From NCBI GenBank assembly GCA_039961635.1, contig JABRWB010000041.1, positions 1,448-65,447 of the forward strand: a DNA stretch of 64,000 nt, read 5' to 3'. The stretch comes from a bacterium (GTDB taxonomy: Bacteria > 4484-113 > JAGGVC01). Both the position numbers and the translations under genes were made by a program. The notes under the pieces were generated by a model. That model did no database searches and was not told the origin of the DNA. It saw nothing but the letters and a program-made list of their open reading frames with translations. Positions 4,624 to 56,338 of the stretch are shown in pieces; within the stretch, counting starts at the first letter, position 1; every line of letters begins with the position of its first letter.

Positions 4624-4653
4624 CCATGGCGATAATGCCTATTAATGCTCAAT

Positions 4654-13408: not shown

Positions 13409-14160
13409 AACGAAGCCTCGACGCGGTTGAACATTTTGCGGTGGATTTAGTCCGGCTTCAGGCGGGATGGGCAATCACCACGCTCGTGCTTGCCATCCAG
13501 GTTGTGGCTGTCGTGTTTTTCTCGGCTGCAGCGCCCGAAATTAAAACGCTTGATCAACAGGCGGCTTGGGAATCGGAGGTTCTTCGCTGGTTGTTGATTC
13601 CGGGAATTGTTTGCCTCTATCTCAAAGCTTGCCTGTATCTGTGGCGTTCGACCGCCCCAAAAGGAAATGCCTTGCACGCCCAATCGGTGCCGCGGACTTA
13701 CTCTCAAGCCGCAGGTGCGACGATTGTCGTGCTTTCGATTGACAATGCAATACTTTTGCTCGTTCCATTGGCCTTCGGCTTTGGAGATTACCTGTCGGTT
13801 TTGGAGAGAGGCGTGCAGATTTTTGCATTCGTTTCTTCCGGTACTGCGGTTGCAGGTTTGCTGTTCATCAAATTAGCACCGCGCCAGCCCCTTTTCGCGC
13901 CGATTTATTTCGCCTGGATGCTTTTGTTGGAATATGCGCAGGTCTGGCTTTCCCGCGAACATCCGGAATTGCCTTTGTTCAACGATTTGTTCGCTTGGAA
14001 TCGAATTTTTCCAAGTTTGGCGACGCAGACGACGACGTTGAAGCTCGACTCATTTCAGATCTACGAGCTTCTGTTTGCTTCCGCCATAACGGTCGCGGTC
14101 GCACTGGCTTTGATTACGGCGGTTCACGGAAAAATAAAAAGTGCAGCTAGCGGTTCCTGA
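13405..14160 (+). CDS. Polytopic membrane protein (about 7 TM), unknown function, translationally coupled to gspF.
   Basis: ATGA overlap with the gspF stop. Hydrophobic helices throughout. Contains SIDN...GFGDY. Confidence 0.6.
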   Translation: MKRSLDAVEHFAVDLVRLQAGWAITTLVLAIQVVAVVFFSAAAPEIKTLDQQAAWESEVLRWLLIPGIVCLYLKACLYLWRSTAPKGNALHAQSVPRTYSQAAGATIVVLSIDNAILLLVPLAFGFGDYLSVLERGVQIFAFVSSGTAVAGLLFIKLAPRQPLFAPIYFAWMLLLEYAQVWLSREHPELPLFNDLFAWNRIFPSLATQTTTLKLDSFQIYELLFASAITVAVALALITAVHGKIKSAASGS

Positions 14161-15241
14161 CCCGGAACAAGTATGCTCCTGCCGCGGCGACAATCGCGTT
14201 CGGAATCCAGCTTGCCAAAAGCGGCTGGATGGCACCTGCCTGACCAAGTTTCATCGCCACGACCGTTATTACATAGTAAACAAGCACAATCAAAACCGCG
14301 ATGCCCATTCCCGTTCCACCCGTCGTCCGAGCTGCGCTTATCGCGAGAGGAAACGCTATGAGAACAAAAAACACGCTGGCAAAGGGAGTGGAGAATTTGA
14401 AGTAATACTCGACGCGCGCCTTTGCGGCTTCGCGTTCAAGACCTTCCCTTTGCAAATCGTTGATATATGCCCGAAGCTCCGATATGCTCATTTCAAGGCT
14501 TGTCTTCGCCTTACGGGTCAGCCCGGACGGTTTGATTTCGAGTTCGCGTATATCAAGGATATCGAAAGTGGACGTAAGAACCGAGCCTTCCTGCATTACT
14601 TGGTAGCGCGAGCCGTTATGGAATACCCAATGATCCTCCTGCCAGACGCCCGTTTCTGCCGTAATCCAAGAGCTGCGCTGGTCGGTGGGGCCGAAATTGA
14701 AAAACTTTATTCCCGTCAGCTTGTCTCCCTCAAGCTTTTCAGCGAGCAAAAGAAAGGTGAGCTGCCCGCCTTCGTAGAAAGGCAAGACGAGGTTTTCCTG
14801 ATTCACCGCTCCTGTCTTGCGCAATAAAACTTCGTTCTTAATGCGGACGATTGCGCTGTTGGCGCCCGGCGCGACGCCTTCTGAAAGGAAAAAAGTGATG
14901 CCGGCTGCAGCAACCCCGAAGTAGGCAACTGCGGCTGCAGCCCTTAAAAGCGAAATCCCTGCCGCTCTAAGAGCAATTATCTCGGAATCGTTGTTTAGGC
15001 GGCCGATCCCAAGCAGTGTTCCCAAAAGCACCGACATGGGGAACGAAAGTGCAACAACTTGAGGAATACCCAAAAGAACAAGCTTTGCGAAAAGCGAGAA
15101 GGGCAGGTTGAACTTGATCATGAAGTCCAGGGTGGACTTAAGCATCGTCGCCGATACGATGAGAATTGAAAAGCTGAATAGCCCGAATAAAAAGGGCTGC
15201 CAAACTTCGCCAAGAATGAGCCGGTCAACCCTTTTGAACAC
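14147..15241 (-). CDS. LptF/LptG-family LPS export permease (YjgP/YjgQ).
   Basis: MFKRVDRLILGEVWQPFLFGLFSFSILIVSATMLKSTLDFM...IALRAAGISLLR is the canonical N-terminal motif. 6 TM helices plus a periplasmic beta-jellyroll. Confidence 0.8.
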   Translation of the reverse strand: MFKRVDRLILGEVWQPFLFGLFSFSILIVSATMLKSTLDFMIKFNLPFSLFAKLVLLGIPQVVALSFPMSVLLGTLLGIGRLNNDSEIIALRAAGISLLRAAAAVAYFGVAAAGITFFLSEGVAPGANSAIVRIKNEVLLRKTGAVNQENLVLPFYEGGQLTFLLLAEKLEGDKLTGIKFFNFGPTDQRSSWITAETGVWQEDHWVFHNGSRYQVMQEGSVLTSTFDILDIRELEIKPSGLTRKAKTSLEMSISELRAYINDLQREGLEREAAKARVEYYFKFSTPFASVFFVLIAFPLAISAARTTGGTGMGIAVLIVLVYYVITVVAMKLGQAGAIQPLLASWIPNAIVAAAGAYLFRVRNR

Positions 15242-15322
15242 GAACGCATTCTAACACAGTAAACCGACGCAAATAGGATAATCAAATCCCAATGTTGTTC
15301 GAATGCGGATTCCATTTGACAG

Positions 15323-26815: not shown

Positions 26816-26867
26816 CTGTCTAAACAGGGACAGGCGCCCAGGGACGCCGTCCGGGGCTTGAGAATTA

Positions 26868-28582: not shown

Positions 28583-28591
28583 GATGACCTC

Positions 28592-29287: not shown

Positions 29288-29748
29288 GACACCTCCGCCC
29301 CAACGAAGATTTTTCCTTCCCGTATTACCACTTTGTATTGCTTAAGATCCCTGGGTGAGGGGCCGGCGATCAACTTGCCGTCGAACGTGAACCGTGCGCC
29401 GTGGCAGGGACAATCAAGTTCATTGCTTGCAACGTCGACCATGCAGCCAAGGTGAGGACATTTTTTTTCTAGTGCTTTTAACGCTCCATCGGCAAGGAAT
29501 ACGATAATCGGGACGCCATCAGATCCCATTACAGTTTTGGGAGAACCGTCGCCCACCGACCCCTCGGGGCCCACCTCGATCAGTTCGTTTTTCTCCGACG
29601 TTCGTTTGGGTGGAATAAGGATGTTGAGTAAGGGGAAGCAAATGATGAATGCAAGGCCGAGGAAAGAGCTCCCAAGAAGCCATTCGACAGCCTTGCGACG
29701 AGCCTCATTGGACTCGTCAGCATGCCCTGGTTCGAATTCCTTTACCAC
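29284..29748 (-). CDS. Rieske [2Fe-2S] iron-sulfur protein (possible Tat substrate).
   Basis: CPHLGCMVDV...CPCHGARF are the Rieske boxes. N-terminal EARRKAV followed by a TM helix. Confidence 0.85.
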   Translation of the reverse strand: MVKEFEPGHADESNEARRKAVEWLLGSSFLGLAFIICFPLLNILIPPKRTSEKNELIEVGPEGSVGDGSPKTVMGSDGVPIIVFLADGALKALEKKCPHLGCMVDVASNELDCPCHGARFTFDGKLIAGPSPRDLKQYKVVIREGKIFVGAEVS

Positions 29749-41669: not shown

Positions 41670-41714
41670 CGGTTGCAATTTCAGCCCGCAAAGGAACCCT
41701 TCGGCAAGGGGAAA

Positions 41715-43961
41715 ATGGTATTAAAACAAGATATAAGCCGCGCGCGTGCTTTTGCGTCCGTTGCGCGAATAACCAAGGCGGTCTTGGCAATCGTCACTAT
41801 TGCCGCGGTTATTGGCGGCGTCAATCTGATTTTCTACAATTCTGAACGCGAAATAAACGCCATTGTCAACAGGCCACGCCAGGCGAAATACAGCATCGCG
41901 CTAAACGAGAACCGGGCTACGGGTATAAACGATCGCGGGGAAATCGTCTGGGAAATCGAGAGTGAAAAAGTGACCGTTTCCGCACGCGAAGACCAGTATG
42001 AATTTCATAAGGCTACCGCCCGGTTTTTTGACAGCCAGGGTCCGAACCTGTATATCGAAGTCGAGAAAATCGTGTACGACGAGCCTTCCCAGGATCTTCA
42101 TCTTCTTGGCGGAGTGCACCTTTTAACCAGAGATGAAATGGCCGTCTCAACCGAGGAAGTCCACTGGCGGCACTATTCCAATCAATTCATCTTTCCGAAG
42201 CAGGTCGAACTTCGTACAAAGGAAGGAAATTTGGTTTCCGCAGATTACATGCACGGGGATAAAAACCTTCGCCAGCTTTTCTTCGTGGGTCATTGCCAGA
42301 TTAAAATCATTGAACTCAAAGACACAAAATTCATTAGCGACCGCGAGCTTACGAAAACACAGCTCAAGCTCCAGGACTTCAAAAACATCTTCATTTCGGC
42401 AGACAAGGTCTATTACGACAAGGAGCTCGAGGTTACTGTCGCTGTAAGTTCGTTTTCCGACAAACAGTATAATGTGACCGATCCCCGGACAGGAATGCCG
42501 GTTGAAATCGACTACGGCGACGAGCCGCCCGGTCAGATTTATTTTCGGAAGGGAGAAATCGAGCTGGTCGCCAATCACGTGGAAGTCCATCAAAAGGACT
42601 CCTGGGCGAAATGCTACGGCAACGTGCAAATGAGGATCAATCCAGCGGAGATTAAGCCAAACGACGCTCCCGCCCTGCGTTCGATGAAAAAGCGTACGAC
42701 CCTGATTACCGCCAACGACATAGAATACTTTTGGGATTCGGACTACGCGCGCACGTACGGCAGAAGCGTTGTCATGCAAGACGATCGCAGGGCCGGCGCC
42801 TGGGGAGTCACCTATTACGGCAAGTTCCAGGATGACGAAACCGGCCAATTGCGCAAGGTTGTGTGGCTGGATGACGAGATTTTTATTTTTCAAGGCAGCG
42901 GAGAGTGGCTTAAGGAAGACGAGGTTCTAAAAGATTTTAAAAATCCGGATGTCGAGAAGATGTTATTTGAGGCGGTCAAAGTCACCGGCGATAAAGCCGT
43001 GTTGTTTCTTGATTCGGCGGATATTTACGGAGCCGGAAACGTCCGCGTGAGGCAAAAAGATAAAATCGCGACTTGCGACGAGATGCTGTTTGACGACAAG
43101 AAAAAGAAATTCACATGTCAAGGACACGTCCTGTACGTCAACAAGAAGGATGAAAGTTTTACGGGCGAGCAGATCATCTTTTTCTCGGATTCTGACGACA
43201 TCGAGGTAAACGGCAAAGCCGACGCTTCGATAAGAATCCCGCCGAAGTACACGAAAAAATTTGACGAAGTTAAGCGCAGTCTGGCGGAACGCGGTGCAAA
43301 AAACACATCCGACGAAGAGGCCGTCGCGATTGCCGAAGCGGAGCGGGCCAAGTGGCGCGAGGAGAACAAGCCCTGGGAATTTCTGCCCGGATGGATTGAC
43401 GACGTGCTGCTGCCGGGATTTGGCAAAGGAAGCCGTCCCTTATTTCCAGAAGCCCCGGCTGAAGCGTTTTCGGCGGACGGATTTGATTGGATGCAGAGAT
43501 TGTCGGGCGACGAGGTAGGAATTACACCGTGGAAAAAGGACGGCGCGGCGCCGGGCCAACCCGGATTTGGCCGTTCCGGTGATGCCGAGGTTCTTCCCGA
43601 AGGCATTCCCTTGGCTCCGCCGCAAGTTTCGGGACTTTCGGGGCGAGATGCGGTCAGCGAAAAGAGGCGCGAACTCGGATTGGAAGATCCAAGAGAGGTT
43701 CCGGGGCGATTGCCGCTCTCCCCTCCGACCGGAGGCGAGTTCATTCCCCCTCCAATAAAGGAATCTGGCGAAAAAAGTGCAGACGGACCACTGGAGCTTT
43801 TTTTCAAACTCCAGGACGATATGAATTCAAGGCACGACAACTCATCAGGAGACTCAGGTAAATCGGGCGAATCCAACGACATTCCAGCCGACAGCGGTAA
43901 CAAAAGAGATCCGGGCGATGCGATTGTCATCGAACCGCGCAAGGATGTGGATGACAAATGA
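41715..43961 (+). CDS. Giant LptC-like protein: N-terminal TM anchor, multiple OstA/LptC-like beta-jellyroll repeats, and a Pro/Gly/Glu-rich disordered tail (about 750 aa).
   Basis: TM segment AVLAIVTIAAVIGGVNLIFY, then alternating-hydrophobic beta patterns typical of LptC/LptA (GGVHLLTRDEMAVSTEEVHW...). Start placed at ATG 41715 with a GGGGAAA SD. The six-frame track's TTG start (41673) was rejected. Confidence 0.55.
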   Translation: MVLKQDISRARAFASVARITKAVLAIVTIAAVIGGVNLIFYNSEREINAIVNRPRQAKYSIALNENRATGINDRGEIVWEIESEKVTVSAREDQYEFHKATARFFDSQGPNLYIEVEKIVYDEPSQDLHLLGGVHLLTRDEMAVSTEEVHWRHYSNQFIFPKQVELRTKEGNLVSADYMHGDKNLRQLFFVGHCQIKIIELKDTKFISDRELTKTQLKLQDFKNIFISADKVYYDKELEVTVAVSSFSDKQYNVTDPRTGMPVEIDYGDEPPGQIYFRKGEIELVANHVEVHQKDSWAKCYGNVQMRINPAEIKPNDAPALRSMKKRTTLITANDIEYFWDSDYARTYGRSVVMQDDRRAGAWGVTYYGKFQDDETGQLRKVVWLDDEIFIFQGSGEWLKEDEVLKDFKNPDVEKMLFEAVKVTGDKAVLFLDSADIYGAGNVRVRQKDKIATCDEMLFDDKKKKFTCQGHVLYVNKKDESFTGEQIIFFSDSDDIEVNGKADASIRIPPKYTKKFDEVKRSLAERGAKNTSDEEAVAIAEAERAKWREENKPWEFLPGWIDDVLLPGFGKGSRPLFPEAPAEAFSADGFDWMQRLSGDEVGITPWKKDGAAPGQPGFGRSGDAEVLPEGIPLAPPQVSGLSGRDAVSEKRRELGLEDPREVPGRLPLSPPTGGEFIPPPIKESGEKSADGPLELFFKLQDDMNSRHDNSSGDSGKSGESNDIPADSGNKRDPGDAIVIEPRKDVDDK

Positions 43962-45352
43962 AGTCTGTCAGTTTGTCGGCTTCAAAATTGATTGCTTGTT
44001 TGGTGTTACTTTTATTCGCATTGCAGTTTGCGCTTGGCACGCGGGCGTTGGCCCAAGAAAGTGGCGCGGATTCCACTGAGTACGGCGAATCAGAACCGGA
44101 GCAGGGCAAGTACACGCGGCGCGGATTTGTCCGGATGTTTATCCCCAATGGGCGGATTACCGGCAATACAACCGACAAGCTTTATCATGTGGAAGGCGGC
44201 CTTGAAGTTTATTACTTCGATGTCAAGATTACGGCGGACGAGGCGGATATTGACCAAAACACCGAAACTGCCACGCTTTCCGGAAATGTTTTTTTCGAGG
44301 ATCCGGAATATCGAATCACTTGCAACAAGCTTTTTGTGGATTACAAAAACAACTGGATGAGCGCGGAAGGATTCGTGCAGTTCAACCGGTACAACGAAGG
44401 CAAGGCCAAAGTCGTTGAAACTCTGTCCAAGCGCAACCGTTTGATTACAGTGTTGAAAAACAAAACAACCAAAGTTTATTGTGGCAAGCTCAATTACAAT
44501 TGGGATACTGAAGACTTTTCGGCAGAAGGCGAAGTCAAGGTTGTACAGGAAGGTCTGACAATAGAAGCTTCCGAAATGAGCTACGAAAAGGCAACCGGCA
44601 ATTACTCGTTGTCTGGAGATGTCGTCTTGGTAATGGACAACTACGACTGGCTTTACCAGGCAAAGGTGGTAGCGCAGGAAGATGCGGACTTGGTCAAATC
44701 CCTAACCAAACGCAAGACGACGATCAAGTGCGAAAGCATGCTTGTGAACGACGAAAATGGCAACGTGCGCTGTCTTAAGGGGACCGGAGAGGACCGCGTG
44801 ACTGTGGATCAGGGCGATAAAAGGCTTGAATGCGACGATTTGGCGGTTGACGATGCAAAGAAAACAATGACAACCAAGGGCAATGTCAAATACTGGCAAA
44901 AGGACGGCAACTGGCTCGTCGAAGGCGGCCTTATTAAACGGGAAGAAGCGGAGAAGGAACTTCTTGACGAAATACAGGAACCGATGACAATCCTAGCCGA
45001 AACCATGCTTTTTGATTATGACAAGCGTAAGATGGAAGGCCTGGCGGGAGATGGTGAAACAATCAAAATCGAAGGCCGAAAGGGCAGGGGAGCCCAATCG
45101 AAGAAAATGACCTTCGACGACAAGGAAAAGCTTCTTGAAATGTCCGGCGGCGTGATTATTAATTCCGGCGAGGAATTTCTTTATTGCGATTCATTGTCGG
45201 CTGATACAGACAACAAGGTATATATTTTCAGCGGGGACGTGGACGGATTTTTCATGTATCAGAACCGCGAAAAGAAGGGCGAAGCCGAAGAAATCGCGCC
45301 AGCGGATTCGGGCAACGCTAATGGAAGTCAATCCCGCGAGTCGACGCGGTAA
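43958..45352 (+). CDS. Extended LptA/OstA-like periplasmic protein (464 aa, signal peptide), translationally coupled to the LptC-like gene.
   Basis: Signal peptide. OstA_N-like pattern LSGNVFFEDPEYRITCNKLFVDYKNNWMSAEGFVQF repeated several times. ATGA overlap with the upstream stop. Confidence 0.55.
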   Translation: MKSVSLSASKLIACLVLLLFALQFALGTRALAQESGADSTEYGESEPEQGKYTRRGFVRMFIPNGRITGNTTDKLYHVEGGLEVYYFDVKITADEADIDQNTETATLSGNVFFEDPEYRITCNKLFVDYKNNWMSAEGFVQFNRYNEGKAKVVETLSKRNRLITVLKNKTTKVYCGKLNYNWDTEDFSAEGEVKVVQEGLTIEASEMSYEKATGNYSLSGDVVLVMDNYDWLYQAKVVAQEDADLVKSLTKRKTTIKCESMLVNDENGNVRCLKGTGEDRVTVDQGDKRLECDDLAVDDAKKTMTTKGNVKYWQKDGNWLVEGGLIKREEAEKELLDEIQEPMTILAETMLFDYDKRKMEGLAGDGETIKIEGRKGRGAQSKKMTFDDKEKLLEMSGGVIINSGEEFLYCDSLSADTDNKVYIFSGDVDGFFMYQNREKKGEAEEIAPADSGNANGSQSRESTR

Positions 45353-45622: not shown

Positions 45623-46282
45623 CTAAAATTGGACAGCATCCTCCGCATCTGCGGAAAAATATTTCGCCATATACTCGCCGAGAATTCTTTTAAGCGAGTC
45701 ATGGCATTTGGTGCAAGCCGTACCAGCCTTGGTTCTGTTTTGCAAACCCGCGAAATCACGTACTCCTTCCAGAACAGCTTCTTCTATGTCGTTGTCGGTC
45801 ACCTGCAAGCATTCGCATATCACCGCGGAAGGCTTGTCGATGACCTTTTCCGACATTCCAATCCGAGTATAATAGTCATTTATTGCGGCTCTAAGCGCTT
45901 TATCTCCAAGCACGCTGCAGTGAATTTTATGCTCAGGCAAACCGCCGAGCTTTCTAAGTATGTCCCTGGGCGTTAGTGCTCGAGCCTGTTCCAACGTCAT
46001 GCCGCCATCCTCAAGTACGACTTCGCTCATCATTGAAGTGGATGCGATGGCGCTTGCGCAGCCGAAGGTCTTCCATCTCAGATCCCGAATGCGGCCCGAG
46101 TCGCGGTCAACCTTAATCCAAACACGCATCATATCACCGCATACCGGAGAACCGACCGTGCCGATACCGTCCGCGGATGCGTCCCAGTCCGCGGTGTCCG
46201 AATAAAGGGCGTTGCGCGGGTTGAGGAAATGGTCCTTAACCACCTCTCCATAAAGCCAGTCCATCATGTCGAATTCTGCCAT
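45623..46282 (-). CDS. NifU-like Fe-S scaffold: an IscU-type domain fused to a BFD-like [2Fe-2S] domain.
   Basis: GSPVCGDMMRVWIKVD...KIHCSVLGDKALRAAINDY is IscU. ICECLQVTDNDIEE...GTACTKCHD is the BFD CxC...CxxC. Start placed at MAEFDMMDW. Confidence 0.75.
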   Translation of the reverse strand: MAEFDMMDWLYGEVVKDHFLNPRNALYSDTADWDASADGIGTVGSPVCGDMMRVWIKVDRDSGRIRDLRWKTFGCASAIASTSMMSEVVLEDGGMTLEQARALTPRDILRKLGGLPEHKIHCSVLGDKALRAAINDYYTRIGMSEKVIDKPSAVICECLQVTDNDIEEAVLEGVRDFAGLQNRTKAGTACTKCHDSLKRILGEYMAKYFSADAEDAVQF

Positions 46283-46301
46283 TTGCGAAGACCTCGAAAA
46301 A

Positions 46302-47471
46302 TCAAGTCCTGCTGGGTATCGAATACACTTCCAGTCTGAGCCTGTCTTCAGATAAAGCAAGCACTTTCTTTGAATCAAGGCTGAACAGATACTGGGCGCA
46401 TCCATCCTGCACAAGGATTTCGCGGCGGGTGTCAAGCTGCATAATCCACAGGTCTTTTGAATCCGAGTATTCAGGCGGTTCGCCAATACGTTCGGGTATC
46501 CGCAAGTATCCTAGCCATTTGCGGTCCGGCGTCAGACTTGGTTGCAGTTCGTATCCCGAATGCTTGACCAGAACTTGATTTTCCTTTTTTTCGAGGTTGA
46601 AAGTGGAGATGTCCGACTCGTCAAGAAAATCCAGCACCCCGTCCTTGTTTGTATCCCTCGAAACCAGACTGAAGTAAATATCCTTGCCCGAATCGGTTAT
46701 GAACATACTGTGAACGTAGGGAAAAAGCCCCAGAATCGAAGCAGAGTTCTCGTAAAAATCGTATTTCAGAATGTAGTGATCCGCAGGATACTCTCCACGG
46801 AAGCTCCAGCAGTCAATAATAAGGGCATCCAATTCAAAGCTGTACACGATTTCGTCAATTAGGTCAGCGTTGTCCTTGACCACCAGCGCAACAAAGCTGT
46901 TCGTGTTCAAAGAGAGTCTGGCAATCGAAGTCGGCTCGTTTGGAAACAGGTATGGAACCGCTGCGACGTAAAGATACTGGTCGGTCGGATCCCAGGCAAA
47001 TTCCTTAACCCAGAAATTATCCGGCATGTGCTCAAAATTCACAAGTTTCGGCTCGCCGTCCTTAAGGCTGATAACGCGGAAAAACGGCCTGACGGCGGGA
47101 TCCGAAAATGGTTCGTAAAACAGAAGATAATTATGTCCTGGCGACACCGAAAGCTTTAGATTGGAAATGTTTGTGCCGCTCGGAAACAATTTTTCAAGCT
47201 GGGTTGCCGTAATGACCTTGCTGCGGGTGCCATCGTGAATGTTGTGCTTCCACAGGATGCTTCCGTTTGGATTGATTGCATACAGCAACACGTTGTTTTC
47301 GTCGAACCACGCAAACGTGGATATGCGGCTTCCGTCGTTGAATGAGATCGTCCGCGCGTAAGGATTATCCGCCAACGCCGGAGAGATCGAATTCATCAAA
47401 AACACGAGCATCCAAGATGCGAAGCGAAACAATAACGTCTTTTGCATGGGGCACTTATTATACAGGTACAC
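46302..47471 (-). CDS. Secreted beta-propeller (TolB/PD40-like) protein of unknown function.
   Basis: Signal peptide. Repeated beta-strand, Trp/Asp-rich blades. Confidence 0.5.
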   Translation of the reverse strand: MYLYNKCPMQKTLLFRFASWMLVFLMNSISPALADNPYARTISFNDGSRISTFAWFDENNVLLYAINPNGSILWKHNIHDGTRSKVITATQLEKLFPSGTNISNLKLSVSPGHNYLLFYEPFSDPAVRPFFRVISLKDGEPKLVNFEHMPDNFWVKEFAWDPTDQYLYVAAVPYLFPNEPTSIARLSLNTNSFVALVVKDNADLIDEIVYSFELDALIIDCWSFRGEYPADHYILKYDFYENSASILGLFPYVHSMFITDSGKDIYFSLVSRDTNKDGVLDFLDESDISTFNLEKKENQVLVKHSGYELQPSLTPDRKWLGYLRIPERIGEPPEYSDSKDLWIMQLDTRREILVQDGCAQYLFSLDSKKVLALSEDRLRLEVYSIPSRT

Positions 47472-47509: not shown

Positions 47510-50500
47510 TCAGGTTACTTCGACTGCCACACCGGGAGTAAGAAAAACCAACTTGGCCGAATCCACCGGCCCCAATCCTGCTTCAACCGCCTTGATGTAG
47601 ACCCACATTTGGAGGAAGTAATTCTCGGCTCTTCCATTTACTTCTGCCATGTCAACCGCGTCCGTTTTCCAGTCAACCAAAATTCTGCGTCGGTCGCATT
47701 CAAAAATCAAGTCCACCGCGCCTTGAGCCACCACGAAATCATCGTCATTAAGCATTACAATTGAGGGGCTGATTGCGGATGATTGCGGCATGTTTGGATT
47801 TGCCAGTGCCGTTAGGGCTCTTAATGCTCTTGGTTCTGATGCGAAGTCCTCTCTATTTAACCTTAACAAAAATCTCCATTCTGTTCTTGCAAATCCTTTC
47901 CCGCTTAAAAAACGCCCAAGCGGCGTTTCCAGAAAAGAATGAATCCGATTCATTTCTATATTGCTTGCATCTGATTCGGCGATTTTGCCCAGAGAAACGA
48001 GCTCCGCAAGAGTTTCTTCCGGATTTATACCGACACCACAACCGAATGGCAAATTGGACATGAGAATGTGAACCGCCGAGCCGAGTCGAAGCGAGTCATT
48101 GCGCAGATTGTGTGAATTTCGCGAGGCATCCCTCGGTTCGAACGATTCGGCGATCATTCGCAAACCTTCCGGATCGTCGTATTTGGATAGGGACGATGCG
48201 CTTATCTTTCGCGGAATGCTTATCGTTGAAGAAAATGGATACTTAAAGAGCACGGCATCGGGAATCTTCAGTTCCGCTTCATTCAACGGAGTTACATCCA
48301 TGCCAAGTTCGGTTTTAAGAGCAAGGTTGGGAAGTGTCTCTTTTCCGATTGCAGCCTTCAGCTCGGATTCCCGGAACACATCGCAGCTCAAATCCGCATC
48401 CAAGCCTTGCGGCGCAATCCCACCAATTTGAACGCCGATTGATTCCAGGGCCGCGTAAACAGGTTTTGCCTCAATAAAAATGGGCATTAGCCAATCCATA
48501 AAGTTGCAGGCTTCGTCCCGTTCCCTTATACATTCGTTTTTGGCGGTCCTCCTCGCTGCATAGCTTACCTTGAAGGCGGATTCGCGTACCGAACCGACCA
48601 TTATCAGCCGTTCTCTTGCGCGCGTTAGGGAAACGTAAAGTTTTCTAGCCTCCTCCTCAAGCATTTTGTGGCGCAGCGCCCGTTCGACAATGCGGTAAGG
48701 AGGAGATGGATAGGTAGCGTGGCGGTTGGGGTGAAGTAACCTGCAACCAAAACCAATTTCACGATCGAAAATTACGGCTCTTTTCGATTCATCGAATCTG
48801 AATTTATGTCCCAAACCGGCTGCGATCACTATCGGAAACTCAAGCCCCTTCGCTTGATGAATGCTTGTGATTTGAACTCGGTCTCCGACCGCCGATGTGG
48901 GAAGTTCGATTTTGTCTTCCGCCGACGCTTTTTTAATCAAATCTCCGAGTCCTCCCGGCGGCATGGATTCCGAAATTCCGGCGAACCATTCCAGTCTGGA
49001 GCTTGAATCCGCTGTCCCGTAACCGAGCCGGGCAAGGCTGTCCAGATTAGAATCGCGTATAGTTTTCAGCACCACTTCAGACAACTCATCCGACTGGGCA
49101 GTTTGGCGCATTTCAGTAAGCCATTCCAGGAAACGCTCAATTTTCAATCGCTCTTCAGTTGCGAATCGCATAAGCTCCTCTGATGGAGCACTTTCGCCCA
49201 AGGCCTCTGAAAGAACTGTCAGAACTTGATTATAACCCTTGCTGGTGACCGAAGACACAACTGCATCGAACAGCAGCTCGCAATGTTCCATTGAGCTTCT
49301 GATGGCAAGAAGGTAGTCAGGCGTTAGGCCGACCAAAGGACCGAGCAAAACCGCAGAAAGCGGAATATCCTGCAACGGATTGTCAATAACGCGCAATATG
49401 CTTAACAGATCCCTAGACAATGGATCGGACATAAGTTGCGCGCTACCTCCTGCTGAAAACCAGAACGGAATTCCGTAACGGCCGAACACCTCCGCATATG
49501 TATCCACCCAATTGACCGGTGCGGACAAAATAAGGGCTACGTGCCTGAACGATATCGGGACAGGCCTTTTCTGCCCATCATTTTCTTCGATTACTTTAAT
49601 TGCAGGCACCGAATTAACCAACGATAAAATTTCCCTGGCGACAAGTGATGCCTCCAGCTCTTTGCGGGATAAGTCGGTTTCTTCAAAGTCGCCGCCCGCA
49701 TTTTCCGTATCAAAATCATCGTTTTCAACCTCTTTGTCGTCTACGCGAGTTCCCGATGACAAAATAAGCTTCAACGATACGTGCGGAGTTACGCATCCGG
49801 ATGCGCACTGGCTCAATTCATTTCCAGCGCCACTTATAAGCTTGTGTCCATCGCAATAGTCAATCCCGCCGAAATTCTCGGAAAAAATCCGTGAAAAAAC
49901 AGCGTTTACCACGTCTATTACGGGTTTGACGCTTCTGAAATTATCGGGCAGGTCGATTAAACTGGACGATTCATCTTTGCCCTTTCGGATAAGGTTCAAT
50001 CGGTTAACAAATAAATCCGGCTCGGCATGCCTGAAGCGATAAATGCTTTGCTTTACATCGCCAACCATAAAAAACATTTTCGCGCGTTGCGACAGGCATT
50101 CGAAAATCGCATCTTGAATAGGGCTGGTGTCCTGATATTCGTCAATAAGAATATGATCGAATCTGTCGGCCAAAACTTCGGCCACATGCTTGTTGCTTGC
50201 CGCTGTTTCGGCTAATAAAGTATGTGCGTATCTTTCCAGGTCGGAAAAATCCAGCATTTTCAAGCGTAGTTTGATTTTCGAAAAGCACTCCGTGTACTTG
50301 TAAACCAAATCTATTAATTCGGGCAATATCTGCGAGGACGAAAACTTTTTCAATTCAGAAAGTATGATAAGCTCCGGAACCAGCCACGTTTTTCTAAAAT
50401 CGGACTTTATCCTGTTTCTAAATTTCACCCAAGACTCCTTAGTTCGATCCAGCTCGTAAATGTTACACTTCGCAGGATAGCGGGGAGTCCAGCTTGCGCC

Positions 50501-51325
50501 CGAAAGAAAGTCATTCATTGCGCCGGTTTTTTCCGTATCCATTGACAGAAATTCAGACAGCAGCTTTACATCGTTGTAAATTGCCTCGCGCCATGCTGCC
50601 GGTATCGCCGACTTTCTGAATTCCGTTTCGAACCATTCAAGTTCGCGCCTGATTTTCTCTATTTCCGCTGTTAAAGCATCTTTGTAAAGCTTACCCCAAG
50701 TCGTGTGCCAAAAACTTTCCGCTGACTTTACTTCATCGTAGAGGCCAAGCCAATATTTGCTTCTGGCTCTCGGCTGGGGCAGTTTTTCGAAAAAATCCGC
50801 CAAATCAAGCACCAAAGTATGCAGCCATTCATCGCCCCTGCCTGTGCCGAATGACCTCAACAACTGCGCATAGCGCTTTTGTCCAGCTTTGCTACTGGCC
50901 ATTTCGGCGATTGTCTTGCCAATAGCGATTTCTTTTAAATTGCGTGACTTATCCTCATCTAGAATTGCAAAGTCCGCGGGAAGAGACAACGGTCCTGCGA
51001 ATTCCCGTATAAGCTGCAAACAAAAAGAATGTATCGTACCAACAGGCGCTTGGGTGATTCTAGGGATCAAAAGCTCCAAATTGCGATCGTTCGATTCAAC
51101 GAGCCTGTTTATTACGCCAATCTTGAGTTGAGACGCTGCTTTTCTGGTGAAAGTAATTGCCAGAATCCGCTCCGGTGCGTTTCCTTCAATTAGCAGTTTT
51201 AAATATCGCTGAATAAGAACGCTAGTTTTTCCCGCTCCAGCAGCAGCGCTTACAAGTATCCGGCGATCGACGGCCTCGATCGCTTTGCGCTGACTCATTG
51301 TCCAGTTCACCGGGCCATTTTTCAT
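47510..51325 (-). CDS. addA: AddA/RecB-type helicase-nuclease (UvrD-like helicase plus C-terminal PD-(D/E)xK nuclease).
   Basis: ILVSAAAGAGKTSVLIQRYLKLL (Walker A)...DEYQDTSPIQ...VDLIFECDRRRILVDWKTD (nuclease motif). Confidence 0.85.
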   Translation of the reverse strand: MKNGPVNWTMSQRKAIEAVDRRILVSAAAGAGKTSVLIQRYLKLLIEGNAPERILAITFTRKAASQLKIGVINRLVESNDRNLELLIPRITQAPVGTIHSFCLQLIREFAGPLSLPADFAILDEDKSRNLKEIAIGKTIAEMASSKAGQKRYAQLLRSFGTGRGDEWLHTLVLDLADFFEKLPQPRARSKYWLGLYDEVKSAESFWHTTWGKLYKDALTAEIEKIRRELEWFETEFRKSAIPAAWREAIYNDVKLLSEFLSMDTEKTGAMNDFLSGASWTPRYPAKCNIYELDRTKESWVKFRNRIKSDFRKTWLVPELIILSELKKFSSSQILPELIDLVYKYTECFSKIKLRLKMLDFSDLERYAHTLLAETAASNKHVAEVLADRFDHILIDEYQDTSPIQDAIFECLSQRAKMFFMVGDVKQSIYRFRHAEPDLFVNRLNLIRKGKDESSSLIDLPDNFRSVKPVIDVVNAVFSRIFSENFGGIDYCDGHKLISGAGNELSQCASGCVTPHVSLKLILSSGTRVDDKEVENDDFDTENAGGDFEETDLSRKELEASLVAREILSLVNSVPAIKVIEENDGQKRPVPISFRHVALILSAPVNWVDTYAEVFGRYGIPFWFSAGGSAQLMSDPLSRDLLSILRVIDNPLQDIPLSAVLLGPLVGLTPDYLLAIRSSMEHCELLFDAVVSSVTSKGYNQVLTVLSEALGESAPSEELMRFATEERLKIERFLEWLTEMRQTAQSDELSEVVLKTIRDSNLDSLARLGYGTADSSSRLEWFAGISESMPPGGLGDLIKKASAEDKIELPTSAVGDRVQITSIHQAKGLEFPIVIAAGLGHKFRFDESKRAVIFDREIGFGCRLLHPNRHATYPSPPYRIVERALRHKMLEEEARKLYVSLTRARERLIMVGSVRESAFKVSYAARRTAKNECIRERDEACNFMDWLMPIFIEAKPVYAALESIGVQIGGIAPQGLDADLSCDVFRESELKAAIGKETLPNLALKTELGMDVTPLNEAELKIPDAVLFKYPFSSTISIPRKISASSLSKYDDPEGLRMIAESFEPRDASRNSHNLRNDSLRLGSAVHILMSNLPFGCGVGINPEETLAELVSLGKIAESDASNIEMNRIHSFLETPLGRFLSGKGFARTEWRFLLRLNREDFASEPRALRALTALANPNMPQSSAISPSIVMLNDDDFVVAQGAVDLIFECDRRRILVDWKTDAVDMAEVNGRAENYFLQMWVYIKAVEAGLGPVDSAKLVFLTPGVAVEVT

Positions 51326-54300
51326 TGGACTCCCTCCAATTCCCGCTTCATAAGGGAGATAACTGATTCTTTATCGCCCGCTTTCCCAGCTAATCTCACA
51401 ATGTCGTGTGAAGGATTCATCCTGCACACGGAAGCATAGTTGCAATAATCGCAAAGACAGTAATTGCCCACTTTTACGGGCGCGACCGCGATTCGACCTT
51501 CCGCTATCTCGGACAGGATTCTGCGCAAATATGCGGTGAACCAGTCGAATAAAGTTTTCCAGTCGCCCGCCCCTATCACGTCTATTTTATTTTGATATCC
51601 GAATCCTCCATTTTTATTAAAGTATATTGAATAGTATTTTGACCAGCCTGTTGCAGACTTATCCAATAACCTTGCCGCATGTTCGCTTATTAGGCCGCGC
51701 GATTTACGCATTATTCCCTTATCTTCTCCAGCATCTTCGAACGTTGGCCGCGAATAAATATCGGGCGAAATGTGAAACCACAGCAACGCGCCTACTTTTG
51801 GCCGCGGCGGGTTATCGGCTACGCCAATTGCTTGAACAATGTTCCCGGCCAACATTTCAAGTGCATACCCATAAAATAAAAGCTGTATATCCAGGCCGTG
51901 AAACAACTTATCCCACGAAATTTTTTTTAGGCCGCTTTTATAATCCACGACTGCAAGGCATCCGCTGTTGGCCTCCAAGTCAATTCTATCAATCCTTCCA
52001 GAAACCAAAAACCGAACATCGTCCACTTCAATTTTTACTTGTGGAAGCGCCCCTTCTTGATTACCAAGCCATTGTTCTGCAAGCAGTGGGTCGAAAAGGC
52101 CCGCATTCAGCGTTTGAAGAATTATAAGGAAAGTTTTTTTGACATCACGTTTGATTTGATCTTGAAGAAGCTTGAATGCCGGAATCCTGCTCCAGTCGCA
52201 AGATGCATCATTAAGGACATAAGTTGCGGCTTCATCCATCAGTGCAAGCAATGCAGATTGGTCGCCACCCCTCCAACAAAGCTTGCGAGTAAGTGATTCT
52301 GTAAGGGTTTTCTCCAGAATTGCGTGATATATTGCGCCTAGGGATAGCGAGTCCGGCCGCCCCTCGGGCCTGTTAAACAACCTTAGGTCGGCCTCGGCGA
52401 AGTAAGCAAACGGGCAAGCTGAATACTTTTCCAATCTGGTTGGCGATATCCGATTGCAGTATTTGACTCGGAGAGCGGTTCCCCATTTATGAAGTTTTGC
52501 CGCGGCAGGAGGAGCCTGCAAATTCAATGTTTCGGCCAATCTCACTTCGCCATTTGAAGGAACCAGTAATTCCCTCTGCATGCCTTTGGATTGAAGATAA
52601 GATGCGAACTCAATAGGTGTTACGGCTTCGCTTAAATTGCGGGGCGTTTCGGGCACGTCGTTTTCCTCGATTCTTCCGGCAGCCCAATCGGGAAGCATCG
52701 AAAGCAACGGAGAAGGAACAGCTTCAGAGGATTCCCTTATTGGAATAGTCACGGTCAAGCTATTTGAAGCGCGAGTGCATGCAACGTAAAACAAATATCT
52801 TTCCATAATAAACCTGCTGACGCCGTCTCCTTCCAGCGGAAATCCCTGTTGCCGCAAATATAATTTTTCCTCTTGCGTGATTAATCCGCCATCCCCGCCT
52901 TTGAGTGGAAATCGTTCGTCAATAAGTCCAAGAAGGAAAACATGTTTTGGAGATTCCTGGCGGCCGCGCTCGATTTCAGAGACAATTACTTCATCCAGTG
53001 CGGGCGGCGGAATTTTTGCTTTTGCATCCGATACGGCAGCTTCAAATAGTTCACTGAACATTCTAACTGACATTTTTTCGTCACCGCACAAAACGCCTAT
53101 TTCATGCAGCGTCCTTACGGCCAAGTTATAAGCTTCAAGCTCAATAATATCTCCGCGCACGCGCTCTTCGATTCCGGGGAACAGCATTTTTACTATTCCC
53201 TGCATCTCATATTCAAATTCAGGCGCAGTTAGGGGACGAGTGATTCTAGAACCATATTCGCCTAGTGAAATCAGAAAGGCAGCCAAATGAGTTTCATGCG
53301 CCGGCTCAAATTCGCCAACAAGCTTAACTGAATGCTCGCATATTCCTTCGTTTGGCACAGCAAAACGAAGCAAAAGATTTTCAAGTCTGTCTGTGGATTC
53401 GAGCGGCACACCGGAATGCGGATTTCGCAGAAGCGACAACATGCTGCGCCTGTCGGGTTCAACCGCAAAATCGAGAAGATCTGAAAACAACCTAAGAGCA
53501 GGTCTGACGGCCAGCGGCCGCGGGCAGTCCAGAAAAAAGGGTATGTCGTATTTGGGAAAGCAATCCGAAATCAATCTTCGATACGGCTCAAGAGACCTGG
53601 ACACGACGGAAATATCTTTGTACCTTACACCCGAGCAAACAAGCCGCCTAATTTCCCTGGCGACAAACCTGATTTCGGCAGATGATGTCGGGACGGCTAC
53701 AAGCCGGAAATCCCTGATTTGCGAGCCTGGCAGCTTCTGTCTGGGCAGGTTATTTGGGGACTTCCTTCCTTGTCTAATGCCGATTTCAAGCGCGTTAAGT
53801 TCGGGTGCTTCGGCGAATCTCCATGTCTTCCGCTCAAGATTAAGGTATTCTCGCTCGATCTTAAACGCCGATGCCATCGAATCCAGAGCAAAGTACGTGG
53901 CCAATGGATATCCCAGTGGCGATGTATCAATTCGATCCCTGGGATTATCTTTATTCTTCCCGCTCGGCGATAGATCGGACGGATTCATAAGAAGAGCAAT
54001 TGTCGTTTGCCTGGAGCCTTGAACAAGCGCACGAATAACGCTTAGTTCGCCCGCCGTAAACCTACTGAAGCCGTCAATCCATAGGCGAAGTGTCCGTTTC
54101 GACAGAAGTTTGGGAATATCACCAGCCAAAATCTCCAATCCCGCGGTGTCATCAACAAGGTTGCGGGATTCCAGTTCCGAATTCAATTTTGCCGCGAGAT
54201 AACTGATGTAATTTATTTTGGAGTGCAACCAAGGTCTTTGGGATGCATCTGCCGCCTCGGCAAGCATTTCCAAAGGAAATCCGCATCTTTTGCATTCCGA

Positions 54301-54678
54301 AATCAAATCCAGAATTTGATCCATTTGCCCGGTACCTGCGGTACCGGTGCTCGCCAAAAACGGGGGCATTTGTTCATCGGCAAGAATCCTGAAAAGCAAC
54401 AACCGCTTAATATTAGGATCGGCGAGTTCTTGTTTAGGCTCGTAGCCAAGAACACGCGGGAGCATTTTGAAACCGGTTATGGCCAAATCGCTGATGACGG
54501 GAGATTTCGATTTTGAAAGGAGCAGCCGCTCGTACTGCGCGGTGGCTTGATCGGGAACCAGCAAAATCATAAGTGATTCCCGGTCCGCACGGTTTGCCGC
54601 GATATCCAATATATCCCGCGCGATTTCGTGCGTTTTCCCGCTGCCTGCAGGTCCTATGATGAATTTTAGTTTAGCCAT
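51322..54678 (-). CDS. addB: AddB-type helicase-nuclease subunit with a C-terminal Fe-S-cluster nuclease domain.
   Basis: MAKLKFIIGPAGSGKTHEIA...C-terminal CLCDYCNYASVCR cysteine cluster. 4-nt overlap with addA. Confidence 0.8.
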   Translation of the reverse strand: MAKLKFIIGPAGSGKTHEIARDILDIAANRADRESLMILLVPDQATAQYERLLLSKSKSPVISDLAITGFKMLPRVLGYEPKQELADPNIKRLLLFRILADEQMPPFLASTGTAGTGQMDQILDLISECKRCGFPLEMLAEAADASQRPWLHSKINYISYLAAKLNSELESRNLVDDTAGLEILAGDIPKLLSKRTLRLWIDGFSRFTAGELSVIRALVQGSRQTTIALLMNPSDLSPSGKNKDNPRDRIDTSPLGYPLATYFALDSMASAFKIEREYLNLERKTWRFAEAPELNALEIGIRQGRKSPNNLPRQKLPGSQIRDFRLVAVPTSSAEIRFVAREIRRLVCSGVRYKDISVVSRSLEPYRRLISDCFPKYDIPFFLDCPRPLAVRPALRLFSDLLDFAVEPDRRSMLSLLRNPHSGVPLESTDRLENLLLRFAVPNEGICEHSVKLVGEFEPAHETHLAAFLISLGEYGSRITRPLTAPEFEYEMQGIVKMLFPGIEERVRGDIIELEAYNLAVRTLHEIGVLCGDEKMSVRMFSELFEAAVSDAKAKIPPPALDEVIVSEIERGRQESPKHVFLLGLIDERFPLKGGDGGLITQEEKLYLRQQGFPLEGDGVSRFIMERYLFYVACTRASNSLTVTIPIRESSEAVPSPLLSMLPDWAAGRIEENDVPETPRNLSEAVTPIEFASYLQSKGMQRELLVPSNGEVRLAETLNLQAPPAAAKLHKWGTALRVKYCNRISPTRLEKYSACPFAYFAEADLRLFNRPEGRPDSLSLGAIYHAILEKTLTESLTRKLCWRGGDQSALLALMDEAATYVLNDASCDWSRIPAFKLLQDQIKRDVKKTFLIILQTLNAGLFDPLLAEQWLGNQEGALPQVKIEVDDVRFLVSGRIDRIDLEANSGCLAVVDYKSGLKKISWDKLFHGLDIQLLFYGYALEMLAGNIVQAIGVADNPPRPKVGALLWFHISPDIYSRPTFEDAGEDKGIMRKSRGLISEHAARLLDKSATGWSKYYSIYFNKNGGFGYQNKIDVIGAGDWKTLFDWFTAYLRRILSEIAEGRIAVAPVKVGNYCLCDYCNYASVCRMNPSHDIVRLAGKAGDKESVISLMKRELEGVQ

Positions 54679-54808
54679 ATTTATGCCGCTTCGTTGCCGC
54701 GGAATAAGGATTATACAAGCCCCGGTCGGGTACAATCTGCACGTGCCGGCAATCAACGATTCAGGGAAACCTCCGGGCAGCTTTCCGCCGCCTTCCCGGT
54801 TTCACAAA

Positions 54809-56338
54809 ATGGACGACAGGCTTGTCGTCGACAGGAACGCGGTAAATTTCACTCTTCGCGGATTTCTGATACTTATAGCAGGCGGATTTGCAATTTTGCT
54901 TCTGGCCCAGGCGATCAGCATGCTGTTCGCCCCTCCGAACTTGTCCAGGATGTCGGACAATCAGCTGAAGAAGTTGTCCAAGAAGGTTAAATCTGCCTTG
55001 GGATCCGGTGCCGGGGTAATAGCTTCGCGTTATGAAAACGGACGCTCAAAGATGTATGCATATCCTCTTTCGCAAGAAAAGCCAATTTTGTTGGATGTCG
55101 CGTATTCGATGAGCGGCGGCACCAGTTTCATGTCCAGGTACGAAAACGCGTTCGACTACTTGCGGGAGGATAGGCATCCGGTTGACATTCTGGATCATGT
55201 TAAATTGCTTTTGCAGAATATCGCTGGCCTATTCGGAAGGGAAAACAGTCCGAACTTAGCGTTGCAAATGTATCCATCGGTTTACAGCCGTTTTGTAATT
55301 AGACTGGACGATTTCAATATCGCTTCCGGGGAGAAGTTTTCACTGCCTCCTGACCCAAGAGGAAGCACTGCAAGGGCGATTGTGATTCCTGATCCAAGCG
55401 GCCGCAACCTCTTTATCTGTCGCTCTGACGGCCCGCTGTTTTTCGACGGGAAAACCGGAGAAAAAGAAGTTACCATCGAAATGGCGCCAGCGGATCAACT
55501 TGGAGGATACAGCGCGCCCGCGGTGACGCGCAGATTTAAAATTAAACTGCCTGAATTGAACGGGTCTCGGGAGCCGATCAGGAACATAATCCGTCCGCTT
55601 CAGGGCGCGAAAAACGGGGTGTATTTTGTATTTTACACAGTCGGGGGGGAAAAACAGGTGATTGTTCAAAGCGGTATTATATTTTGCAGTATGTTGGACG
55701 ATACAGGCGCAAAAATGGTTGCGCATTTGGTTCCAGAACACGTTGCGCAAAATGGTGAGCTGGTCAATACTTTTGTCATAGCTACTTACGTGGAATCAAC
55801 AGGGACATTGCTTGGTGTTGTCGAAAATCTTTGGGAGGATGGATATTATAGGATAATGGCTAGCTTCGATCCAATGAGCAGCATGTTTAAACCGCTGTTC
55901 AAGGTGGGTTGGGATTCGACCGGCGGGCTTATAGACTACAAATTGGACGAATACTTTTTTTTCACTTCCAAAAAGCCGGAACAAGCATCAAGCTTTCCAT
56001 TTCGAAAAACGTCGTTTCGCGATGAGAACGAAGCCGTAATCGGTATGGATTCCGCCGGACCGGACGCAAATTACATTCTTTGCAGGTTGAATTTGAAATC
56101 GTTCACTTTAAAGGAGATTATAGCCACTTCTGCGAACGTGCGCGGCTTTCGAACAATGGGATACGGTTATTCCACGCCGGTTTTTACTCTTTCGGAAACA
56201 ACCAGGGAAGTTATTTACGCCGATCAGCACAAGCTGATGTCGGTCGATTACGAGGGCGGAGTCCCCAGGACTATTGCAGATGATGGTTCCGGCAACTGGA
56301 ACATGCTTTGGTCAATCGAGGCAAATCCGGATGGTTGA
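54809..56338 (+). CDS. Membrane-anchored periplasmic hypothetical protein (about 510 aa).
   Basis: TM segment LRGFLILIAGGFAILLLAQAI, then a mixed alpha/beta domain. No motif recognised. Divergent from addB. Confidence 0.5.
   Translation: MDDRLVVDRNAVNFTLRGFLILIAGGFAILLLAQAISMLFAPPNLSRMSDNQLKKLSKKVKSALGSGAGVIASRYENGRSKMYAYPLSQEKPILLDVAYSMSGGTSFMSRYENAFDYLREDRHPVDILDHVKLLLQNIAGLFGRENSPNLALQMYPSVYSRFVIRLDDFNIASGEKFSLPPDPRGSTARAIVIPDPSGRNLFICRSDGPLFFDGKTGEKEVTIEMAPADQLGGYSAPAVTRRFKIKLPELNGSREPIRNIIRPLQGAKNGVYFVFYTVGGEKQVIVQSGIIFCSMLDDTGAKMVAHLVPEHVAQNGELVNTFVIATYVESTGTLLGVVENLWEDGYYRIMASFDPMSSMFKPLFKVGWDSTGGLIDYKLDEYFFFTSKKPEQASSFPFRKTSFRDENEAVIGMDSAGPDANYILCRLNLKSFTLKEIIATSANVRGFRTMGYGYSTPVFTLSETTREVIYADQHKLMSVDYEGGVPRTIADDGSGNWNMLWSIEANPDG

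Follow-up and report, generated by a model that had tools for sequence, protein, structure and literature searches.

Two elongated Lpt-type genes overlap by four nucleotides

We analysed a 64,000-nucleotide stretch of bacterial DNA (positions 1,448 to 65,447 of contig JABRWB010000041.1, assembly GCA_039961635.1), referred to as the window. The analysis concerned two adjacent open reading frames (ORFs), ORF1 and ORF2, which encode elongated relatives of the lipopolysaccharide (LPS) transport proteins LptC and LptA. A sequence-only reading of the window had described an LptC-like protein of about 750 amino acids (aa) and an LptA-like protein of 464 aa, translationally coupled by an ATGA overlap. 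Both descriptions were borne out. The proteins have 748 and 464 aa, they match Pfam profiles above cutoff, the top Foldseek matches are LptC, LptA and LptD, and the overlap of 4 nucleotides (nt) at 43958-43961 was read in the sequence. The features of the pair and of a likely partner are listed in Table 1.

ORF1 starts with an ATG at 41715 and ends with a TGA at 43959-43961. An in-frame TTG at 41673, which would give a protein of 762 aa, was also considered as the start. The ATG was preferred because it is preceded by an AAGGGG Shine-Dalgarno-like motif and because the N-termini of homologues align there. A search of 5.8 billion proteins gave 12 homologues for ORF1 and 10 for ORF2, with 32-57% identity and many invariant columns. 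Since both proteins are conserved in these homologues, the two ORFs are real genes and not chance reading frames.

Table 1. Features of the ORF1-ORF2 pair and of the LptF/LptG-family gene, in window coordinates (AF2, AlphaFold2; pLDDT, predicted local distance difference test).
Feature	Position	Strand	Details
ORF1, LptC-like, elongated	41715..43961	+	748 aa; ORF list, Pfam, NCBIfam, AF2 and Foldseek
N-terminal membrane anchor, hydrophobic core, ORF1 residues 22-41	41778..41837	+	AVLAIVTIAAVIGGVNLIFY inside AF2 helix 4-51
Complete LptC-type jellyroll head, ORF1 61-198	41895..42308	+	AF2 13 strands, pLDDT 78-90
Beta-block extension with helical insertions, ORF1 225-507	42387..43235	+	AF2 22 strands, pLDDT mostly 70-87
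Module paralogous to ORF2 117-320, ORF1 281-482	42555..43160	+	includes QxxGxWL and acidic-helix insertion, ~390-410
Disordered acidic/Pro/Gly tail, ORF1 513-748	43251..43958	+	236 aa; pLDDT <50
ATGA overlap, ORF1 stop / ORF2 start	43958..43961	+	4 nt; junction reads gacaaATGAagt
ORF2, elongated LptA-like periplasmic protein	43958..45352	+	464 aa; Pfam, AF2, Foldseek
Putative Sec-type signal peptide, ORF2 1-32	43958..44053	+	K-rich N-region, hydrophobic LVLLLFALQFAL, ALA/QE site; read by eye
Structured core, ORF2 58-431	44129..45250	+	four beta-blocks: 58-144, 171-226, 254-314, 343-431
LptF/LptG-family permease, likely inner-membrane partner	14147..15241	-	364 aa; Pfam LptF_LptG 2.9e-80, 352/353 profile positions

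ORF1 consists of an LptC head and additional beta-blocks

Pfam LptC matched ORF1 at residues 29-190 (E-value 7.4e-11, 42.4 bits, cutoff 21) and covered profile positions 3-166 of 175. Further along the chain, LptD_N matched residues 273-368 (2.9e-6, 27.9 bits, cutoff 20.4) and OstA_2 gave a weak match at 419-465. ORF1 scored 59.6 bits with the NCBIfam LptC equivalog TIGR04409, above its cutoff of 38. The AF2 model of ORF1 showed a helix at residues 4-51, about 35 strands between residues 61 and 507 with pLDDT mostly 70-90, and pLDDT <50 from about residue 510. A Foldseek search of this model against the PDB returned 6mit_C, 6mjp_C, 4b54 and 3my2 first, with a probability of 1.0 and target-normalised TM-scores of 0.61-0.75. 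The membrane anchor proposed by the sequence-only reading was found as a hydrophobic stretch at 22-41 within the predicted helix, and an equivalent stretch was present in the homologues. ORF1 therefore shows the topology of LptC, in which a single N-terminal transmembrane (TM) helix is followed by a beta-domain, here from residue 61. It does not have the size of LptC, which comprises about 190 aa and one jellyroll with nothing beyond it.

A profile of canonical LptC-like sequences, each about 185 aa long, aligned end to end with ORF1 22-199 (2.1e-37). Beyond the head, the canonical jellyroll profile aligned by its C-terminal part only, at ORF1 272-309 and 420-507, and the same was observed in ORF2 at 70-141, 167-226, 276-312 and 336-430. 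Since only the C-terminal part of the profile aligned, the extra length comes from a block repeated several times, similar to the C-terminal half of a jellyroll, and not from whole copies. The blocks were 55-95 aa each, with short helices between them, as seen in both the profile alignment and AF2. The multi-jellyroll architecture suggested earlier was thus correct in part: OstA/LptC-like segments occur in both proteins, but only one complete jellyroll was found, in ORF1, and the rest are half-jellyroll blocks with helices. The motif IEVNG (ORF1 496-500), located at the C-terminal edge of the extension, was invariant.

The extension of ORF1 was also related to ORF2. Comparison of alignments A1 and A3 with hhalign matched ORF1 281-482 to ORF2 117-320 with a probability of 98.7 and an E-value of 4.2e-16 over 193 columns, helical insertions included. 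The hallmark of this module, Q-x-x-G-x-W-L with an acidic helix, occurs once in ORF1 (residues ~390-410) and twice in ORF2. As the two segments are homologous, ORF1 is composed of an LptC head and a paralogue of the ORF2 module.

ORF2 is an elongated LptA-like protein

Pfam LptD_N matched ORF2 in three stretches (5e-16, 59.4 bits, cutoff 20.4), and LptC and OstA_2 also matched. The AF2 model had a pLDDT of 78.9 and a predicted template modelling score (pTM) of 0.72, with a pLDDT of ~85-95 at residues 58-431 and of about 90 over 50-432. It contained 28 strands in four blocks, and helices at 158-167, 230-249 and 318-339 lay between the blocks. Against the PDB, Foldseek returned the LptD N-terminal domain, LptH (4uu4) and LptA (2r1a) as top matches with a probability of 1.0. 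The LptD-LptE translocon, together with LptC and LptA/LptH, headed the matches of both models. The alignments with LptD chains covered 420-540 ORF2 columns, and no other fold was matched with high probability. LptA is a single jellyroll of 16 strands, whereas the 28 predicted strands and four blocks of ORF2 lie in one chain.

The signal peptide that had been assigned to the LptA-like protein was also found, with its leader and ALA/QE site readable in the sequence and an N-terminal hydrophobic leader in all ORF2 homologues. ORF2 had no other hydrophobic segment, and it is putatively of the secreted, soluble type, like LptA. We also considered a lipoprotein, because a lipobox-like LIAC occurs at residues 11-14. 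This was rejected, as the Cys lies before the hydrophobic core and is not a conserved residue among the homologues. These sequence features make a type I signal peptide the likelier assignment.

The gene pair is conserved in related loci

An exhaustive profile search gave only eight ortholog clusters, and a scan of GTDB species genomes gave eight related loci (L001-L008). The records of these loci are titled uncultured Planctomycetia (2), 'bacterium AUK090', Planctomycetales (2), 'bacterium isolate UBP7' (2) and 'bacterium AC1.30'. One of the Planctomycetales loci, L007, belongs to a complete genome (CP060262.1, isolate HK-STAS-UBP7_A-1). In all eight loci the LptA-like gene directly follows the LptC-like gene, and the stop of the first either overlaps the start of the second or is separated from it by 2 nt. 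The flanking genes vary between clades; therefore, only the pair itself is conserved. At L007, separate but overlapping PfkB-kinase and cytidylyltransferase ORFs were observed directly 3' of the pair (14009-15458). They resemble split halves of the bifunctional HldE/RfaE of the LPS heptose pathway.

The public entries identical at 100% to the two window proteins (P0001 and P0013), which come from a 137-kb contig of an NCBI metagenome-assembled genome, are both named LptC. Their calls are shorter at the N-terminus than the homologues support, with 725 instead of 748 aa and 405 instead of 464 aa. The 405-aa call starts at Met60, and the signal peptide of ORF2 is lost. For annotation it is of practical note that these public gene calls give both proteins one name and clip their N-termini. 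Automated pipelines already label proteins of this kind as LptC, LptA or LptD. Long multi-block relatives are not rare either, as 64 of the 148 top matches exceeded 400 aa, in a ranking that favours long proteins. A profile search against PDB sequences returned nothing for ORF1 and only marginal LptA matches for ORF2 (E ~0.005). Since this search was nearly empty, the similarity is visible only at the level of profile libraries and folds.

Single-chain homologues are colinear with the pair

Below the eight ortholog clusters, the search gave a set of proteins with a TM anchor and 855-960 aa, in each of which the jellyroll profile matched 6-8 times. We examined 12 long proteins of 589-959 aa for fusion. 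In nine of them (P0031, P0032, P0033, P0034, P0036, P0037, P0040, P0042 and P0048; 854-959 aa), the ORF1 profile aligned with the N-terminal half and was followed by the ORF2 profile over the C-terminal half. In P0034, residues 53-484 corresponded to ORF1 profile positions 71-517, and residues 523-852 to ORF2 profile positions 102-450 (E-value 4e-43). In P0031, residues 74-458 corresponded to ORF1 positions 78-479 and residues 523-874 to ORF2 positions 88-460 (E-value 1e-38). The ORF2-profile match of P0039 was only partial. Alignment A4 consists of 10 sequences, namely eight of the colinear nine together with P0045 and P0090, and every one of them matched both the LptC and the LptA equivalog models. 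Apart from P0033, which is incomplete at its N-terminus, these proteins carry an N-terminal hydrophobic anchor. P0031, encoded on an 82-kb JGI metagenome contig, is flanked by a 539-aa protein without a Pfam match and by mutL, and no separate LptA-like gene is adjacent to it.

The metagenome single chains of 855-960 aa (P0031, P0032, P0034, P0036, P0037, P0039, P0040, P0042 and P0048) share with the window pair the TM anchor, the LptC head and the extension blocks with the QxxGxWL acidic-helix insertion. They differ at the junction. In the single chains it spans ~20-65 aa around a conserved (E/D)YFRERDG-like helix, without long disorder or an internal signal peptide, whereas in the window the break falls between two translationally coupled genes and is occupied by >200 aa of disordered chain. 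By the logic of gene fusion (Rosetta stone), this colinearity places the C-terminus of ORF1 and the N-terminus of ORF2 as neighbours in one continuous structure. Judged from sequence comparison, the window encodes a one-chain LptC-LptA bridge in split form, with the disorder and the putative signal peptide at the break. The colinear single-chain homologues are the strongest evidence for a head-to-tail bridge. In E. coli, an engineered LptC-LptA fusion forms a stable complex with LptB2FG and supports LPS transfer in vitro (PMC12065857), and covalent linkage is therefore compatible with transport.

The disordered segment belongs to the junction

A Pro/Gly/acidic disordered tail of about 200 aa without a canonical counterpart had been noted earlier, and the model of ORF1 agrees with this, with pLDDT <50 over residues 513-748. 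The tail is composed of 11% P, 11% G and 20% D+E. Six short motifs are conserved in it: WEFLP, F[DE]W, P[ED]GxP, PPQ[IV], EFxPP and AIxxxP. They are restricted to the window and L001-L003, which form one clade, and ORF1 homologues of 550 aa lack the tail.

In the other clades, the LptA-like protein has a similar low-complexity stretch directly behind its signal peptide, in place of a long LptC-like tail. In the window and L001-L003, the LptC-like tail is 232-262 aa and the N-terminal extension of the LptA-like protein is 52-82 aa. The corresponding lengths are 40 and 194 aa in L004, and ~103 and ~300 aa in the UBP7 loci (L005-L008). A disordered stretch of 200-380 aa always occurred at the C-terminus of ORF1 or the N-terminus of ORF2, and its division between the two proteins differed by clade. 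The structured cores were constant across clades: the LptC-like core ended at residue 511-532, and the LptA-like core measured 374-446 aa. Since the cores are constant and the disorder shifts between the proteins, the disordered material belongs to the junction and to neither protein. It probably helps the two halves to find or hold each other, or else crosses the cell-wall layer.

A proposed periplasmic bridge

From these results, we consider it likely that ORF1 and ORF2 are the membrane-anchored LptC-type segment and the soluble LptA-type segment of a periplasmic LPS bridge, each lengthened by extra beta-blocks. ORF1 would be held in the inner membrane by its N-terminal helix, and its LptC head would receive LPS from the LptB2FG extractor. 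The glycolipid may then slide along the extended beta-groove of ORF1. The C-terminal edge of this groove (IEVNG...PxKY) could join, by pairing of strands, to the N-terminal edge of ORF2 (GKYTRRGF...NGRITGNT), and the four blocks of ORF2 would pass LPS to the N-terminal domain of LptD. The most conserved positions of the two proteins cluster at these two edges. The order would be LptB2FG, ORF1 head, ORF1 extension, ORF2 and LptD N-terminal domain, which corresponds to the Lpt slide on a longer track.

LptC and LptA of E. coli have together about 31 strands. The pair in the window has ~63 predicted strands in total, with ~640 residues in beta-regions when helical insertions are left out, or roughly twice the beta-structure of E. 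coli LptC and one LptA. Because the pair holds about twice the usual beta-structure, the length of the bridge would be fixed by two polypeptides and not by a variable copy number of LptA.

The LptF/G permease that the sequence-only reading had placed at 14.1-15.2 kb was identified by Pfam with the E-value given in Table 1, and it lies 27 kb from the pair. In many bacteria, lptF and lptG are adjacent. Here, a single LptF/LptG-family gene was observed in the window, and its neighbours are a 251-aa protein without a family and a ComEA-like helix-hairpin-helix protein. No other jellyroll genes were found in the 64-kb window.

Several points weigh against this proposal or against parts of it. The LptA equivalog of NCBIfam (TIGR03002, cutoff 71.7) was missed by both ORF2 (49.6 bits) and the LptA-like part of ORF1 (34.2 bits). 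The pTM of the ORF1 model was only 0.53, and both AF2 models were constructed from shallow alignments of 10-12 sequences (12 for ORF1). LptB, LptD, LptE and lipid A synthesis genes were sought in the 64-kb window and none was found; LPS as the cargo is therefore inferred from homology. With linear stacking of the blocks, the pair would span ~25-30 nm, not counting the LptF/G and LptD domains, and this rough estimate was calculated from the beta-region lengths and ~6 nm per LptA unit of ~135 residues, the value of a modelled Borrelia bridge (bioRxiv 10.1101/2022.12.21.521298). Lastly, the tail motifs were sought in the disordered segments of other clades and none was found. Such clade-specific motifs weaken any single functional reading of the tail.

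Alternative explanations

The same proteins could form a long Lpt-type bridge in a periplasm of ordinary width, where the extra blocks stand in for additional oligomerised copies of LptA. We regard this as possible, although we do not favour it. The estimate of 25-30 nm is only modestly above that for LptC with two or three LptA. Single-chain versions also exist, and they indicate selection for covalent, fixed stoichiometry. Purified E. coli LptA oligomerises readily and the engineered LptC-LptA fusion performed better in vitro (PMC12065857); both count in favour of this alternative. On the other hand, most of the relatives are titled Planctomycetia or Planctomycetales (NCBI records), a group with enlarged, irregular periplasms, which argues against an ordinary width. 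Overall, a fixed-length bridge in a periplasm of normal width fits the data equally well as one in a wide periplasm, the version that the sequence-only reading had put forward.

The wide-periplasm version can be stated as a fixed-length molecular ruler, made as one chain of 855-960 aa or as two coupled chains, in which the disorder is an assembly element and the doubled length matches an enlarged Planctomycetes-like periplasm. We put this forward tentatively and hold it to be rather doubtful in this full form. According to it, the conserved Trp/Phe/Pro motifs would keep hold of the partner half or recruit it, and so replace the lost covalent link, or they would thread it through the cell wall.

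It is improbable, in our view, that the bridge carries something else than LPS, such as surface lipoproteins or a different glycolipid, in the way proposed for the Lpt homologues of Borrelia. An LptB2FGCAD pathway has been modelled for lipoproteins in Borrelia, which is free of LPS (bioRxiv 10.1101/2022.12.21.521298). The window contains no lipid A or LptD/E gene, and the profile search against PDB sequences showed both proteins to be highly diverged from solved Lpt proteins; both observations agree with a different cargo. However, ORF1 passes the LptC equivalog cutoff and an LptF/G permease is present in the window. A DegT-family sugar aminotransferase is also encoded there, and HldE-like heptose-pathway genes lie 3' of the pair in the UBP7 relative. 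These results favour LPS.

The extra blocks and the tail might instead be accessory, serving as an anchor to the cell wall or outer membrane or as a regulatory element beside an LptC/LptA groove of normal length. The helical insertions between the blocks (QxxGxWL and acidic helix) are conserved and foreign to canonical jellyrolls, and the short motifs of the tail are of a kind typical of binding sites, which would suit such a role. Nevertheless, every block matches the jellyroll profile, and the pTM of ORF2 (0.72) with a pLDDT of ~90 indicates one rigid body. The Foldseek alignments of ORF2 (420-540 columns with LptD chains) revealed no other high-probability fold, and the clades and the fused proteins agree in the number of blocks and in the lengths of the cores. 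An accessory role is accordingly unlikely, and a groove lengthened by the extra blocks remains the preferred explanation. An AsmA/TamB family or a generic DUF beta-sandwich, which the sequence-only reading had named as alternatives to OstA/LptC membership, was rejected, since Pfam gave no such profile at E up to 10 and none was among the top 50 PDB fold matches of either model.

Other genes in the window

The gene 3' of the pair is a convergent NifU gene, and no ABC ATPase is found there. In this region (45623-47471, minus strand), the NifU ORF has 287 aa from a TTG at 46486 and overlaps a 5' ORF of 389 aa by ~185 nt. Its Pfam NifU_N match starts only at residue 79. From this match and the overlap, the true start of NifU probably lies at a Met inside the ORF. 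The 389-aa protein begins with a hydrophobic leader and could not be assigned to a family with confidence. Beyond it, at 47513-54756 on the minus strand, lies a helicase-nuclease pair of the AddA/AddB type (1271 and 1144 aa), and a 560-aa ORF without a Pfam match (54656-56335, plus strand) overlaps the start of addB by ~100 nt.

At 24575-29748 on the minus strand, two large cytochromes of the multihaem type (747 and 427 aa), in which cytochrome c7/c3 and MtrC/MtrF-like domains occur, adjoin a Rieske iron-sulfur protein and a cytochrome b. The cluster suggests an unusual respiratory or extracellular electron-transfer module. ORFs of 539 aa (plus) and 869 aa (minus) overlap on opposite strands at 4645-7263. 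The 869-aa ORF is probably the real gene, because only it has a domain match (PDZ), and most of its protein is without a family assignment. An ankyrin-repeat protein of 274 aa is encoded at 3799-4620 on the plus strand. Ankyrin-repeat proteins are uncommon in free-living bacteria.

Comparison with known systems

How the length of the E. coli Lpt bridge is set, including the copy number of LptA, is still debated. A length written into one or two polypeptides would give a defined stoichiometry, and a bridge of this kind should be tractable for structure determination in its complete form. Bridge length and periplasm width could be compared here directly, to see whether one follows the other. Nature also provides both split and fused forms, from which it may be learned how LptC and LptA are held together at their junction, the target site of thanatin-class antibiotics.

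ORF1 resembles LptC (E. coli YrbK; PF06835, TIGR04409; 3MY2, 6MIT chain C) in its N-terminal membrane helix and jellyroll and in its position directly 5' of an LptA-type gene. It differs in length, with 748 aa against the canonical ~190 aa, and its head is followed by additional beta-blocks (~280 aa) and by a disordered tail of 236 aa. ORF2 resembles LptA/LptH (E. coli YhbN, P. aeruginosa LptH; PF03968, TIGR03002; 2R19, 2R1A, 4UU4) in its OstA/LptD_N-type jellyroll fold, its putative secretion and its position directly 3' of an LptC-type gene. LptA has ~185 aa and one 16-strand jellyroll, whereas ORF2 has 464 aa in four half-jellyroll-like blocks with helices. Canonical LptA gains length by head-to-tail oligomers; in ORF2 the length is built into the chain. 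The canonical gene order in Proteobacteria is lptC-lptA-lptB. The adjacency of lptC and lptA is found here, but lptB does not follow the pair. Outside Proteobacteria, lpt genes are generally unclustered according to the literature.

BB0464 and BB0465 of Borrelia burgdorferi are diverged LptC and LptA proteins in a non-proteobacterial diderm, as here (bioRxiv 10.1101/2022.12.21.521298). BB0465 is modestly lengthened, by 45 aa with four extra strands, and the authors relate bridge length to periplasm width. The Borrelia proteins remain single jellyrolls and the LptC is a lipoprotein, whereas the window proteins are 2.5 to 4 times the canonical length. The AsmA-like proteins TamB, YhdP and YdbH and the MCE tunnels LetB and Veillonella MlaD are functional analogues only, as periplasm-spanning grooves or tunnels of protein-encoded length. 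Their folds and families differ from those of the pair, for which no AsmA, TamB or MCE profile matched at E up to 10 and none was among the top fold matches.

In the literature library searched, which was also screened for Lpt of Planctomycetes and for cyanobacterial LptC, we found no paper on natural elongated, tandem, paralogous or fused LptC/LptA or on disorder at their junction, which does not show that none exists. The natural fused homologues have a laboratory counterpart in the engineered LptC-LptA fusion of E. coli (PMC12065857), but this fusion is artificial, of canonical unit length and without extra blocks. Taken together, the family and the mechanism are known and the core function is as expected, and what is new is a distinct architecture with a split and fused relationship between LptC-like and LptA-like proteins.

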